11,072 nt of DNA from Planctomycetales bacterium (GTDB lineage Bacteria > 4484-113), in NCBI GenBank assembly GCA_037445915.1, contig JBBIJQ010000053.1, positions 1 through 11,072 of the forward strand, read 5' to 3'. This document shows, in pieces, positions 418 through 11,071 of this stretch (its first letter is position 1; the number at the start of each line of letters is the position of its first letter). The notes below the pieces were generated by a model, which saw only the letters and a list, made by a program, of their open reading frames with translations, made no database searches and had not been told where the DNA came from. The translations under genes and the position numbers were made by a program.

Positions 418-721
418 GTACGCCGGGCTAACCAGCCCGGCCGAGAAAGGGATTAGAGGTGAGGGAATAGGGATTAGCCCCAGATTCCGTAGGCCGCACT
501 TTAGTGTGGCTTATGGAGTGTAGGGCGCGGGCTTGTACCGCGCCAATGGTATCTTCCGGGAGCGACTGAGGCGGCATACAAGCTGCCGCCCTACACCCGG
601 ATTCCAGACGGCGGGGGGTAAACCCCCGCCCTTCAAAAGATTCCAAAATCCAGAGCCAGGCTAAAGCCAGGCCTACGGTAGGAAAAGTGAATCCAGAGCC
701 GCGCTGGTGAGCGCGGCGTAC
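418..721. repeat. Nested cluster of REP-like hairpins: three inverted pairs plus one single GAAG-type REP
   Basis: Pair A: GTAC-GCCGGGCT-AACC-AGCCCGGC (418-441) and inverted partner 698-721. Pair B: GTAG-GCCGCAC-TTTA-GTGTGGC (489-510) and inverted 655-676. Pair C: GTAG-GGCGCGG-GCTTGTA-CCGCGCC (520-544) and inverted 570-594. Single D: 610-634 on - strand, GAAG-GGCGGGGG-TTTAC-CCCCCGCC. Confidence 0.85.
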
Positions 722-4884: not shown

Positions 4885-5487
4885 GTGCTCTCTTTCATTG
4901 ACGGCGCAGTTACCCACATCGCCCCCGAAGGCCGCGTAACCATCAAGTGCGGCGACTTCGGCTTCATCATTGACATGGTCGCGCGCGAAGCCAACTCGCT
5001 TGCCTACGGCGAAAGCGTGCGCGTGCACACGCTGCCCATCATCTCGCAGCAGGAGGGGCGCATCACGTGCTACGGCTTTTTGGAGGAAGTGGAGCGCGAC
5101 ATCTTCGTGCGCCTGCTGCGCTGCCCCGGCGTCGGCCCAAAGGTTGCGCTAGCGCTACTGGAGATGGGCTCGGCCAGGCTGCTGCGCGCGATTGAGGAGG
5201 AGCAGGCGGCGACGCTGACGAGCACGCAGGGCGTGGGCGCGAAGACGGCTCAGCGCTTGGTGCTGGAGCTTAAGGGCAAGTTCCGCGAGATGCTGGGGCA
5301 GCTACCCGACGCTGCTGCGCCACTCGCGCCGCAGGCAGAAGCCACGCAAGCGCTGGTGGGGCTGGGCTTCCGCGAAAACGAGGTGCTGTCAGCGCTCGCT
5401 GCGCTGGGCAAAGAAGGCGTGAGCATGGCGACGACGCCGGTTGAGGAGCTGCTCAAGCTTGTGTTGGAGAGATTGCGGAGGTCATAG
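4885..5487 (+). CDS. ruvA: Holliday junction branch migration protein RuvA
   Basis: YGF...ER..F..L...PGVGPKVAL and GVGAKTAQRLVLELKGK (HhH motifs), C-terminal EATQALVGLGF domain; follows ruvC directly. Confidence 0.96.
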   Translation: MLSFIDGAVTHIAPEGRVTIKCGDFGFIIDMVAREANSLAYGESVRVHTLPIISQQEGRITCYGFLEEVERDIFVRLLRCPGVGPKVALALLEMGSARLLRAIEEEQAATLTSTQGVGAKTAQRLVLELKGKFREMLGQLPDAAAPLAPQAEATQALVGLGFRENEVLSALAALGKEGVSMATTPVEELLKLVLERLRRS

Positions 5488-5499
5488 AAAAGAATTCGG

Positions 5500-5550
5500 G
5501 TAGGCGGCACCAGCCGAAGGCTGTCTAGCTTTAGCGCCGCGCTGGAATCC
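5500..5550 (+). repeat. GTAG-type REP interrupted by a 19-nt hairpin insertion, followed by the shared 3' tail
   Basis: GTAG-GCGGC-[ACCAGCCGAAGGCTGTCTA]-GC-TTTA-GCGCCGC-GCTGGAATCC. Removing 5509-5527 restores a perfect 7-bp stem with the same TTTA loop as pair B. Confidence 0.7.
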
Positions 5551-5579
5551 GCTGAAGGGCGGGGACCTGTGCCCCGCCG
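5551..5579 (+). repeat. Left GAAG-type REP / inverted repeat of the RAYT cassette
   Basis: GAAG-GGCGGGG-ACCTGTG-CCCCGCC hairpin; exact reverse complement of 6157-6185. Confidence 0.9.
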
Positions 5580-5607
5580 CTTTGAGAATTTCCGCTTAAC
5601 TTGATGC

Positions 5608-6096
5608 TTAACGCAACCCGCCTATATCCCCTTGATAAAGCCACTCCTCCGGTTTCTCTGATTTTTCATGATGAACTGCATTACGCGCCACATATTCCCA
5701 TTTCTCCTCATACGACTCGTCAGAACGCATTAGAGAATCTGCGAATTCCTTTTGCCAAATCGCACCTTCAAATCCAATCTTCCAAGCGCCGCGCGTGGTT
5801 ATGCTCTTCCATGTGCCGATGAATCCTGAAAGGTCGGTGATTACGCCAACTTCCTTTTTGGGCGCACAGAAAAAATGGACATGGTCAGGCATCACAATAT
5901 ACCGCCCAACCGCCCATCCAGCTTTTTCAGCCACCGAGCGGAATGATTCGGTTAGCATTTGATGAATCTCTGGAGTGGCAAGTAAGTATTGACGGCGGTG
6001 CGTGCATATAGTGATGAAGTAAATCTGCGGATTGATATCAGAACGCACTTCGGCAAGGCGCCGCCTGTGTTTCCGGTCTGGGAGTGAAGATTCCAT
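5608..6096 (-). CDS. REP-associated tyrosine transposase (RAYT; IS200-like Y1 HUH family), 162 aa
   Basis: YFITICTHRR, YIVMPDHVH (HUH, His72/His74), WQKEF.D..MRS.ESY.EKWEYV..N (candidate catalytic Tyr135) and C-terminal EEW.Y. Confidence 0.9.
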   Translation of the reverse strand: MESSLPDRKHRRRLAEVRSDINPQIYFITICTHRRQYLLATPEIHQMLTESFRSVAEKAGWAVGRYIVMPDHVHFFCAPKKEVGVITDLSGFIGTWKSITTRGAWKIGFEGAIWQKEFADSLMRSDESYEEKWEYVARNAVHHEKSEKPEEWLYQGDIGGLR

Positions 6097-6103
6097 CCAC
6101 GCG

Positions 6104-6109
6104 ATTATA
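6104..6109 (-). promoter_or_regulatory. -10 box for the RAYT gene (likely leaderless)
   Basis: - strand TATAAT followed by 7 nt (CGCGTGG) and then ATG 6096. It lies inside the REP-bounded cassette. Confidence 0.55.
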
Positions 6110-6156
6110 GCGGAAAGTGCCTACGCCCTGAATAATCATCTGTGCAAGTAAGAACA

Positions 6157-6185
6157 CGGCGGGGCACAGGTCCCCGCCCTTCAGC
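6157..6185 (-). repeat. Right GAAG-type REP / inverted repeat of the RAYT cassette, 4 nt downstream of the rnpB 3' end
   Basis: CGGCGGGGCACAGGTCCCCGCCCTTCAGC, exact reverse complement of 5551-5579. Confidence 0.9.
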
Positions 6186-6189
6186 AGAG

Positions 6190-6573
6190 CGCGGGGGGCG
6201 GTAAGCCGGGTTCTGTCGGGGGCGGCCATTTCTCTAGCCATGCGGTCTCCCGCATAGTCTTGCGGCATCAAACGGAACCGGCGGGCCGCCGGTATGCCAC
6301 GCAAGCGCGGCATCTCCGCCTGCCTTGCACCGGGCGGGTTTGCCCACCCGGGAACCTTGCGGCCCCGGACGTGCGCTCTTACCGCGCGGTTTCACCCTTG
6401 CCGGAGGACTCAACCGAGATTTCGGAGGCTTGCGCTTCCGAGCTTCCGGCGGTTCTTTTCTGTGGCGCGTTCCATACGGTTGCCCGTTCTGGGAGTTGCC
6501 CAGCGCCCTGCCCTGCGGTGCCCGGACTTTCCTCATCACGCCGAGGCGTGACGCGGCCGCCAAGCCCCCCGCG
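6190..6573 (-). ncRNA. rnpB: RNase P RNA, bacterial type A (about 384 nt)
   Basis: - strand has GAGGAAAGTCCGGGC, GCCACAGAAA, AAGGGTGAAAC.G.GCGGTAAGAGC, GGCAAACCC...GCAAG, CTAGAGAAATG and ACAGAACCCGGCTTA. P1 is formed by CGCGGGGGGC (6573-6564) and GCCCCCCGCG (6199-6190). Confidence 0.97.
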
Positions 6574-6578
6574 GAAAT

Positions 6579-6584
6579 ATCATA
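6579..6584 (-). promoter_or_regulatory. -10 box of rnpB
   Basis: - strand TATGAT 5 nt upstream of the P1 5' strand. Confidence 0.55.
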
Positions 6585-6634
6585 CCCGAAATGACGCTAC
6601 GCACGAAAACGGTGCTCAAAAGGAATGTAACGGC

Positions 6635-6643
6635 TGCTATAAT
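6635..6643 (+). promoter_or_regulatory. Extended -10 promoter of the ABC exporter operon (likely leaderless)
   Basis: TG-C-TATAAT, 5 nt before GTG 6649 and 8 nt before ATG 6652, with no convincing SD. Confidence 0.6.
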
Positions 6644-6651
6644 CCCAGGTG

Positions 6652-7797
6652 ATGAAGGCAAAATTCGGTGGGAAGGCGACCTGCATCGCAACTACACTGG
6701 CGATACCCCTTATGCTGGCAATTTGCATCCTCGCGCTTTCGTGCGCGCAGAAGCCGGTGGAGCTTTCGGGCATCGTGCGCGCGCGCGAATACCGCCTGTC
6801 GTCGCGGCTCGGTGGCAAGGTGGCGCAGGAGATGGCTCAGGAAGGCGGCGAGATGAAGGCGGGCGAACCCCTCGCGCGCATTGATGATTCAGTGCTCAAG
6901 GCGCAGCGTGAGGTGCTGGTGCAGGGGGCGAAGGCCGCATGGGCTACATACAACGACTTGAAGGCAGGCGCAACGCCGGAACAGCTTCGCCAGGCGCGCG
7001 CGGAGCTTGCGGGCGCGGAGGCGCAGTATTCACAGGCGCTAAAGGGATTTCGCAGCGAGGACGTCCGCGCCGCGGTGGAGCAGCGCGATGCGCTGGCTGC
7101 GAACTACGAGAACGCAATGAAGAACGCCGGGCGGCTGGAGAACCTTTTCGCAGAAGGCGTGGTTTCCGCGAAAGACCGCGATGCTGCGGTGGCGGCGCGC
7201 GATGCGCTGAAGTCGCAGGTGGCGGCTGCGCAGGCGAACGTGGACAAGCTCACGCGAGGCCTGCGCCCTGAGGAAATTGCGGCGGCGAAGGCGGCGGCGG
7301 ATGCGCGGCAGGCGGTTTTGGACAAGCTCAAGGCGGGCGCGACGGTGAACCAGCTTGCATCAGCCGAGGCGAAGGCGCGCCAGCTTGATGCGCAGCTAGC
7401 CGCGCTTGATTTGGACATAAGCGACTTGACCATTACCGCGCCGACGGGCGGGATGCTGGAGGAATACCTCCTTGACCCCGGCGAAGTTGCCACGCCCGGC
7501 CAGGCGCTGGCGACGTTCGTGAGCAGCGAAGACGTGTGGATAGACACCTTCGTCCCTGAATCAATGCTTAGCAAGGCGCAGCAGGGCGCGAAGATGCGCG
7601 TGGTGCTGGACGCGTTCCCCGACAAGCCCTTTGACGCGGACATATATTTCGTGAGCCGCGAAGCGGAGTTCACGCCGCGCAACGTTAGCACGCCGGAAGA
7701 ACGCGTGAACCAGGTTTACCGCGTGAAGCTGCGCGTGCAAAGTGCGCCGGTGCCGTTGCGCTCAGGCATGACCGCAAAGGTTATGTTCACCGGCTGA
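6652..7797 (+). CDS. HlyD-family periplasmic adaptor / membrane fusion protein (YbhG-like)
   Basis: N-terminal hydrophobic anchor ending LALSC, lipoyl-like SSRLGGKV...EG..MKAGEPLARID, long Ala-rich coiled coil, ITAPTGG, and EAEFTPRNVSTPEERVNQVYRVK. Start may be GTG 6649. Confidence 0.92.
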   Translation: MKAKFGGKATCIATTLAIPLMLAICILALSCAQKPVELSGIVRAREYRLSSRLGGKVAQEMAQEGGEMKAGEPLARIDDSVLKAQREVLVQGAKAAWATYNDLKAGATPEQLRQARAELAGAEAQYSQALKGFRSEDVRAAVEQRDALAANYENAMKNAGRLENLFAEGVVSAKDRDAAVAARDALKSQVAAAQANVDKLTRGLRPEEIAAAKAAADARQAVLDKLKAGATVNQLASAEAKARQLDAQLAALDLDISDLTITAPTGGMLEEYLLDPGEVATPGQALATFVSSEDVWIDTFVPESMLSKAQQGAKMRVVLDAFPDKPFDADIYFVSREAEFTPRNVSTPEERVNQVYRVKLRVQSAPVPLRSGMTAKVMFTG

Positions 7798-10195: not shown

Positions 10196-11071
10196 CTATT
10201 CAAGGAAGTTCTTCATCAGGATTAAGTCCCCATTATCAGAACCGTGCGTATAGTTATCGATGTTTCCGTCGGGTGTGCTGGCTTCAATATCCAGCACCAT
10301 TATCTGCTCGTTCCAATCGCCGTCCTCGCCTAGTGCTTCTACTGCGTTGCTTTCTAGTTCTGTCCCATTTACTTGAGAGCCGGCAGACCACCCCCAAGGT
10401 CGACCAGCTACAGTAGCAAGCATATAAGCGTCGCTGTTAGAATTGAATCCCACGACACTACCGCTTAGCATCTCCGCCTCATGTAGCGAACCGGATTCAG
10501 CGTTGGCATCTAGTATTAAAATCGATCCATTTAGCCAATATCCGCTGATTGCAAAGTACCAGGATGTATTGCTTCTCGCTAATGAGATAGTAGGGAATGG
10601 GCTATTCGTTACTTGAAATAGCGTAGTGCGCGTGACGGTGCCACGAGCGTCAAGTCTAAGTAGAAGGGCATTTCCCTGTTCAAGATTGTAGCTTTCCGTA
10701 TAGCCTGCAACCAAGACATCTCCATCGTCAAGCGGTTCTAAGTCTCCGAAAAGGTCATTTCCCTGTCCGCCCCATTGCCGCGCCCACTGGAAATCTAGGC
10801 TGGAGTTATATCGCGCAATAAACCCATCTCTATTTGAAGTAGATAATCGCACTCCTGCAATGTATAGCGCTCCATCGTCAGCTAATCTGGCCCGATTAAC
10901 AGCTATGAAACCATTTTGCCGCCAGGCTTCCTGCTGGAGCATGTTCCCGTCGCTATCAAGCCTAAGAACGAAAAGGTCGTCTGGAGCATATGCGTTTTCT
11001 TCCCTCTGTCCTGTTACATAACATCCGCCGCTTGGGATTGCCGCGATAGCCCCGCCTTCCGTTCTCCATGC
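10196..11071 (-). CDS. Beta-propeller-like (SBBP-type repeat) hypothetical protein, 5'-partial
   Basis: The frame is open from the window edge (AWRTEGGAIAAIPSGGCYVTGQ...DDLFVLRLDSDGN, then the 248-aa ORF). Repeated blade motifs: G..Y..G...D.F.L...S.G...W...WGG.G.D. Confidence 0.75.
   Translation of the reverse strand, partial: AWRTEGGAIAAIPSGGCYVTGQREENAYAPDDLFVLRLDSDGNMLQQEAWRQNGFIAVNRARLADDGALYIAGVRLSTSNRDGFIARYNSSLDFQWARQWGGQGNDLFGDLEPLDDGDVLVAGYTESYNLEQGNALLLRLDARGTVTRTTLFQVTNSPFPTISLARSNTSWYFAISGYWLNGSILILDANAESGSLHEAEMLSGSVVGFNSNSDAYMLATVAGRPWGWSAGSQVNGTELESNAVEALGEDGDWNEQIMVLDIEASTPDGNIDNYTHGSDNGDLILMKNFLE

Follow-up and report, generated by a model that had tools for sequence, protein, structure and literature searches.

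A single HUH-Y1 gene lying between two identical, oppositely oriented REPs raises the question of what such a unit is: a transposon that recently reached its site and carries the means of its own movement, or a gene that has long been resident there. The unit is found in the 11,072-nt stretch of DNA analyzed here (the window; contig C53), which belongs to the genome of a Planctomycetales bacterium (G000; 1.79 Mb in 120 contigs, 90% complete, GC content of 0.572). An earlier note on this DNA had favored the former, an autonomous REP-transposon that had recently moved or been acquired, and had named it a candidate for an undescribed system.

The inverted-repeat arms span 5548-5579 and 6157-6188, are 32 nt long and 97% complementary, and lie 577 nt apart; within them, the reverse complement of 6157-6185 equals 5551-5579 exactly over 29 nt. 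By our own arithmetic, a perfect 29-nt inverted match is expected by chance in 11 kb at roughly 2e-10 (about 6e7 pairs divided by 4^29). Both REP arms form a hairpin with a 7-bp G+C stem (GGCGGGG/CCCCGCC) and a 7-nt loop, each with CT plus the tetranucleotide GAAG, here called the head, directly 5′. DNA folding gave −10 kcal/mol (z −2.9) for the left arm and −9.1 kcal/mol (z −1.9) for the right. The left REP (5551..5579, plus strand, its arm reaching 5548) is located 28 nt past the stop codon of the enclosed RAYT gene, R1, while the right REP (6157..6185, minus strand), of the same sequence, is 60 nt upstream of the R1 ATG. The remaining REP pairs of the window (I2, I3, and I4) are 76 to 80% complementary, in agreement with the diverged stems described for them earlier. 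A REP of another class (GTAGGCGGCACCAGCCGAAGGCTG..., 5497..5540, plus strand) lies past the ruvA stop codon, ahead of the left REP. With 15 further genomic matches at 85 to 96% and a class that also appears in the k-mer census, it is a piece of REP mosaic outside the inverted pair.

R1 (5608..6096, minus strand, 162 aa) is the sole ORF between the 29-nt perfect arms, and the description of one HUH-Y1 gene bracketed by identical inverted REPs holds. Its protein matches Pfam Y1_Tnp (6e-8) and scores 90.9 bits against NCBIfam NF047646 REP_Tyr_transpos, an equivalog model with a curated cut-off of 80, with residues 18-154 covering model positions 4-145 of 146. The IS200 model NF033573 gives 34.3 bits, under its cut-off of 55. 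The best solved relative is E. coli TnpAREP (PDB 4er8, E 9e-6), in which H59-M60-H61, Y115, and N119 have been described as the HUH motif, the catalytic tyrosine, and a metal ligand, respectively (PMC3479197). Residues H72-V73-H74, Y135, and N139 of R1 fall on H59-M60-H61, Y115, and N119 of 4er8 (positions counted from the alignment), and H143 is aligned with H123 of the E. coli protein. Judged by these matches, R1 is a RAYT-type HUH-Y1 gene.

Of the 49 columns conserved in its subfamily at 85% or more, R1 differs from the consensus in 8, where the median among 84 sequences is 1. The substitutions include FADS for FFDH and NAV for NPV, the latter a Pro-to-Ala change in the N-P-V motif. Together with its clade-mates, R1 makes up the three sequences furthest from the consensus (8, 10, and 17 of 49 columns). 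Such divergence could reflect relaxed constraint or altered specificity, and the sequence leaves room for an R1 that could be weakened or altered. One of the clade-mates, the same-family RAYT at G003:C77:3052-3474 (L033), has DRIT for DHVH and EEL for EYV, the latter without the catalytic Tyr, and from these replacements is probably an inactive derivative.

To the left of the cassette lie yebC, ruvC, and ruvA, and to the right an HlyD-type protein and an ABC-2 transporter. The extragenic space itself is bounded by ruvA (4885..5487, plus strand; 93% identical to its ortholog in G001, the same-genus genome considered below) and by the gene for RNase P RNA (rnpB, bacterial class A; 6186..6573, minus strand), which was recovered at full length (1-367) with 225.1 bits and goes unmentioned in the earlier note. 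rnpB runs in the same direction as R1, and its 3′ end directly abuts the right REP. On the rnpB strand, the right REP has a terminator-like score (stem plus GTGTTCTTAC tail), and this REP is likewise found 3′ of rnpB in G001, being absent from that position in five other family genomes. From this position and the terminator-like score, the right REP probably ends or stabilizes the RNase P RNA transcript. Elsewhere in the window, a 248-aa ORF at 10196-10942 (minus strand) has no Pfam match at E 0.001.

To establish how old the cassette is at its site, the locus was compared with that of G001, the one same-genus genome compared, which is 62% complete. The locus order there is yebC, ruvC, ruvA, a gap, rnpB, hlyD, and ABC genes, with flanking proteins 83 to 93% identical. 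No RAYT match is present in the ruvA-rnpB gap of G001. Reading leftward from rnpB, however, the gap begins with a REP that is identical to ours at 28 of 29 positions, the sole difference lying in the head (GTAG versus GAAG). It is followed by a diverged spacer, in which 38 of 61 columns are identical, by TATAAT and ATG, and by 18 remaining R1 codons that are identical at 44 of 54 nt (MESSLPERKHAKRLGEVR against MESSLPDRKHRRRLAEVR). Beyond these 18 codons homology ends, and the rest of the gap consists of other REP classes. This remnant of REP, TATAAT, ATG, and 18 codons indicates that the common ancestor already had R1 at this locus and that G001 later lost it by deletion. As the REP is far better conserved than the spacer adjoining it, the identity of the two arms points to constraint or homogenization and not to youth. 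The earlier note had held vertical inheritance at this locus to be incompatible with its reading; as far as one same-genus genome at 62% completeness shows, R1 appears to be vertically inherited and ancestral at ruvA-rnpB.

The rnpB loci of six family genomes (G007, G004, G005, G008, G006, and G002) share no window genes at E 1e-5, save for weak Na/H exchanger matches, and because these genomes are not syntenic at rnpB they are silent on presence or absence at ruvA-rnpB. L007 and L008, which hold the best RAYT relatives and are different loci, likewise gave no rnpB with Rfam.

Both the copy number of the cassette and the RAYT phylogeny, which the earlier note had proposed as checks, speak for a resident gene. 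A blastn search of the genome with the interior (5590-6137) matched no second site, so the interior is single copy. The RAYT tree, built from 87 sequences, unites R1 with the RAYTs of G001:C2 and G003:C77 (SH-aLRT support of 93), and the clade around this group (SH-aLRT 92) contains many Armatimonadota MAGs. Across the tree, phylum labels are clustered, requiring 17 changes versus a shuffled mean of 33, and the nearest relatives of R1 come from the same genus and family.

Contigs from four runs of one study were compared with positions 5000-6700. Pieces of the R1 interior occur in all four runs with 0 to 23 differences each, and all of them end at or inside REPs, which places R1 in those samples and leaves its locus there unspecified. 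In the three other runs, the interior contigs have 3 to 23 base differences, with no insertions or deletions listed. Excised junctions, also proposed as a check, were sought in the contigs of the four runs, and no credible one was found; as the data are contigs and not reads, rare excisions would be invisible. A joint from 5540 to 6156, which skips 615 nt and is seen in two runs, was rejected as an excision product, its shorter side being 22 nt with 12 unrelated letters between. The joint was read instead as REP mosaic, its two REP classes being adjacent elsewhere in the genome as well.

A TATAAT hexamer is located at 6104..6109 (minus strand), 7 nt 5′ of the R1 ATG. R1 had been credited with its own −10 box, and the hexamer is indeed there; a two-hexamer promoter scan of 5400-6700 found 0 sites, so that TATAAT is to be taken as a −10-like hexamer only and not as part of a full two-hexamer promoter. 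In both the G001 remnant and the paralog G001:C2 (50% identical), TATAAT likewise stands 7 nt before the ATG. Among the loci of 83 relatives, four have TATAAT within 80 nt upstream, and three of these four are in same-genus or same-family genomes. The spacing would permit a leaderless or near-leaderless mRNA, and from its retention in R1, in the G001 remnant, and in the G001 paralog, we infer that R1 has its own, possibly leaderless, transcript.

The cassette interior is AT-rich as had been described, with a GC content of 0.48 to 0.50 against 0.60 to 0.68 in the flanks, and the R1 ORF, at 0.487, belongs to the lowest 2% of 7136 genome windows. The same is seen for the other RAYTs of the genome: all six range from 0.455 to 0.503 versus a genome mean of 0.572, and the G001 paralog has 0.491. 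AT-richness is therefore a trait of RAYT genes in G000, and the low GC of R1 is no mark of recent arrival.

To place the cassette among its kin, we surveyed the RAYTs of the same genome. Six RAYT-like proteins are encoded in G000, and the next-best protein match of R1 is only 24% identical to it. R1 on C53 is flanked by the inverted pair of GAAG-headed REPs, and R3 (C8) and R4 (C109) are each flanked by an inverted pair of their own REP class. R5 (C7:24339-24869) and R6 (C41:446-979) are likewise each flanked by an inverted pair, of a REP class, GTAGGCCAGGCTTTAGCCTGGC, that is common to the two, while R2 (C18) has REP-like hairpins in direct orientation. Inverted REPs thus bracket five of the six RAYTs (R1 and R3 to R6). 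Between R5 and R6, identity is 84% at the protein level (149/177) and 86% for the DNA; R6 has ATT at the position of the R5 ATG and may be a pseudogene or a gene with a rare start codon.

One genome per species was scanned for relatives of R1; 387 turned up, and 80 loci were retained, 71 of which have 200 nt or more on each side. At 23 of these 71 loci, the gene is bracketed by an exact inverted repeat of at least 14 nt, and at 10 by one of at least 20 nt, the longest measuring 45 nt; the heads of these repeats are mostly of the TGTAGGGCGGGG or TGTAGCCGGG types. The scan relied on exact matches, with 26 of the 80 loci giving no 10-nt seed, and it undercounts such repeats because mismatches are ignored.

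This layout is a published one. Nunvar et al. 2010 (PMC2817692) define it by a RAYT with inverted cognate REPs on its two sides, and the unit is named the REPtron by Di Nocera et al. 2013 (PMC3733652) and Corneloup et al. 2021 (PMC8266576), the former citing Ton-Hoang et al. 2012 as also describing it. RAYTs have further been assigned to REPIN populations from the REP or REPIN beside them and from the fixed extragenic space that they occupy (bioRxiv 10.1101/2021.07.10.451892 and 10.1101/119735). The suggestion of an undescribed system therefore finds no support, as the layout is that of the REPtron and R3 to R6 are arranged alike with REP classes of their own. Nor does it seem that R1 drives the multi-class REP landscape, as had been proposed, since there are six RAYT paralogs, five of them with an inverted REP class, one class being shared by R5 and R6. 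Identical inverted REPs and an AT-rich interior are traits of the RAYT family and not signs of a new or recent element.

The REP class of the cassette has 4 exact copies in G000; allowing up to 3 mismatches raises the number to 10, and allowing up to 7 substitutions raises it to 31, while a control pattern gave 0 matches. Exact arm copies are found at two further loci, and copies occur in contexts that look intergenic, with REP mosaics. Of the 10 copies with up to 3 mismatches, 9 have CT directly 5′ of G(A/T)AG. REPs whose stems belong to different classes have in common their head (CT-GTAG or CT-GAAG) as well as a tail resembling TCTGGAATC, and are often arranged in direct tandem mosaics, both in the window (487-678) and genome-wide. 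Some copies of the R1 class form inverted pairs with a stem variant that carries compensatory changes (GGCGGCC...GGGCCGCC). G-rich heptamer-like repeats (GGGGTTA and AGGGATT types, with CCCTTA complements) adjoin REP clusters at C7:60150-60195, upstream of R3 on C8, and on C36 and C40.

The GAAG head had been called atypical, and comparison with relatives bears this out. Among the 10 copies in G000, 6 are headed by GAAG, located at both cassette flanks and on C21, C35, C36, and C40, and 4 by GTAG. The same-genus genome G001 has 8 copies, 3 of them perfect, and all with GTAG; within the family, G002 has 20 copies and G003 has 1, again all with GTAG, and G004 has 4, with 3 GTAG and 1 TTAG. GAAG is thus found in none of the 33 copies in these four relatives, whose heads are 32 GTAG and 1 TTAG. 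With 6 of 10 copies here and 0 of 33 elsewhere, GAAG is a derived variant, a T-to-A change confined to the G000 lineage. The right flank carries GAAG although it is orthologous to a GTAG copy in G001. Relative to the consensus, the six GAAG copies have 0 to 1 mismatches and the four GTAG copies have 1 to 2. Least-diverged GAAG copies are what would be expected if the variant were the replicating master sequence, with gene conversion as an alternative.

GAAG is not obviously a substrate, because in E. coli every base of GTAG is needed and any change abolishes activity (PMC3479197 and PMC8266576). According to the same two papers, a change at position 2 nearly abolishes cleavage in Stenotrophomonas, and only the last two positions are strongly selected in Marinomonas. 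By analogy with these enzymes, tolerance of A at position 2 of the head by a RAYT is plausible and not a given. The string "GAAG" does not appear in the main text of PMC3733652 or PMC8266576, and among the titles listed by a literature search none bore on GAAG together with RAYTs, which is weak evidence that GAAG-headed REPs are not discussed in the literature.

A second difference between the two sister species concerns the RAYTs themselves. Around the R1 paralog G001:C2, which is 50% identical and at another locus, are three REPs that belong to a sister class (GGGGGTTTACCCCC stem-loop) and have GAAG heads. Its site (L034 4624-7329) comprises 2.7 kb with ORFs of 267 and 326 aa and the RAYT between GAAG-REPs. 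At the syntenic site of G000 (C7:59889-60187), only about 300 nt of REP debris is present, a truncated GGCGGGGGGTAAACCC half-hairpin among it. Neither genome has lost either REP class. Going by these sequences, this is a reciprocal loss, in which each sister species retains one of two paralogous RAYTs.

The spread of GAAG in G000 might mark a recent shift in RAYT-REP specificity. R1, in a lineage without a paralog serving GAAG, would have gained or always had tolerance of A at position 2, and the variant would then have replaced GTAG at both flanks and four other sites. The R1 features that bear on this reading, at otherwise near-invariant positions, are FFDH to FADS, NPV to NAV, and the His at the position of the E. 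coli metal ligand H123. We offer this reading tentatively and regard it as rather doubtful.

Weighing these results, we consider it likely that the R1 cassette is a resident REPtron, that is, a single-copy, vertically inherited RAYT, a domesticated IS200-like nuclease, in the fixed ruvA-rnpB space between inverted cognate REPs. By analogy with the enzymes of E. coli, Stenotrophomonas, and Marinomonas, the R1 protein would bind the single-stranded REP hairpin together with its 5′ tetranucleotide and would cleave and rejoin at the nearby CT, maintaining or spreading a small REP family in trans while its own gene stays put. The identical arms would derive from conservation of the REPs or from their putative homogenization, and not from a young insertion, and the GAAG variant has spread within the lineage, taking in both flanks and four further sites. 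The rnpB transcript would be ended or stabilized by the right REP, which would so insulate R1 with its own TATAAT. Points that speak against a resident REPtron are the smallness of the REP family, at 10 copies within 3 mismatches, the divergence of R1 from its subfamily consensus, a GAAG head where the E. coli enzyme needs every base of GTAG, vertical inheritance judged from a single congener that is 62% complete, and the two-hexamer promoter scan with its 0 sites. For an autonomous REP-transposon, recently inserted or acquired and with its identical arms serving as terminal repeats for self-mobilization, one can cite arms that are perfect over 29 nt, exact arm copies at two other loci, and an AT-rich interior whose gene has its own TATAAT. 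This is largely refuted by the remnant of the same gene, with its REP, at the same locus in the sister species G001. The interior is moreover single copy, low GC is common to all six RAYTs and the G001 paralog, and R1 has its nearest relatives within its own genus and family. The contigs of four runs from one study hold no credible excision joint, their pieces not being tied to the locus. Neither the autonomy of the cassette nor its recent movement or acquisition is supported by these findings, and we regard such a transposon as extremely improbable.

The cassette might instead be a decaying relic, in which R1 is inactive or losing function, the REPs are kept for host reasons (as rnpB terminator or stabilizer), and GAAG was spread by gene conversion, for instance from the GAAG-headed GGGGGTTTACCCCC class. 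That R1 is among the three most consensus-divergent of 84 sequences (8/49 columns), with a clade-mate, G003:C77, that is without HUH and Tyr, would fit this account. So would the terminator-like context of the REP, the low REP copy number, and the deletion of the gene in G001 with no obvious loss of the REP class (8 copies, 3 perfect). A possible donor exists as well, as a GAAG-headed REP class with the same first 13 nt and last 8 nt is present in both species. The R1 ORF is nevertheless intact, with HUH, Tyr, and Asn in place, and for the strain variants in three other runs, 3 to 23 base differences and no indels are listed. Divergence is also lowest in the GAAG copies, as for a currently replicating master sequence. 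On this evidence we judge a relic to be unlikely and keep to the resident REPtron.

Set beside known systems, the cassette resembles the REPtron in having one HUH-Y1 gene between inverted copies of a genome-dispersed REP, which is a G+C hairpin with a 5′ tetranucleotide and CT. Also shared are a single-copy gene in a fixed extragenic space and the presence of several RAYTs per genome with REP classes of their own. It is unlike the REPtron in that the head is GAAG, not GTAG, in 6 of the 10 copies, that the REP family is very small (about 10 copies), and that the right REP abuts rnpB. Its host, too, is an uncultivated small-genome bacterium, probably of the Armatimonadota if its nearest named RAYT relatives are a guide, and not a proteobacterium. 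With the REPIN-RAYT systems of Pseudomonas and E. coli (Bertels and Rainey 2011, PMC3116915; Bertels et al. 2017, bioRxiv 10.1101/119735; bioRxiv 10.1101/2021.07.10.451892), it has in common vertical inheritance in the same extragenic space with RAYT loss in some lineages, and multi-copy RAYT groups that evolve by duplication and loss. A master sequence with mutated neighbors is found in both, as are some inverted doublets, here with a stem-variant partner. In contrast to those systems, many copies here belong to direct tandem mosaics, in which TCTGGAATC separates them from REPs of other classes, and there are far fewer REP copies than in classical REPIN populations. Common to the cassette and the IS200/IS605 elements (IS608 and ISDra2) are subterminal hairpins, a guide tetranucleotide adjoining the hairpin on its 5′ side, and membership of the HUH-Y1 fold family. 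R1 differs from these elements in falling below the IS200 cut-off and in being single copy and stable at its locus, and whereas IS200/IS605 elements have distinct left and right ends, the ends of this cassette are identical inverted hairpins.

For the most part, then, a false lead has been removed. What is modestly new, besides a right REP that abuts rnpB, is the reciprocal paralog loss and the GAAG head, small points for specialists in REPIN-RAYT systems, to whom a 1.8-Mb, non-proteobacterial genome may also be of interest for its six RAYTs, the majority having their own class of REP at their flanks. The change from GTAG to GAAG in one lineage provides a ready substrate pair for testing how strict RAYTs are about the tetranucleotide. 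If the specificity shift were true, it would represent natural evolution of the guide tetranucleotide, where the GTAG of E. coli is experimentally intolerant of change.
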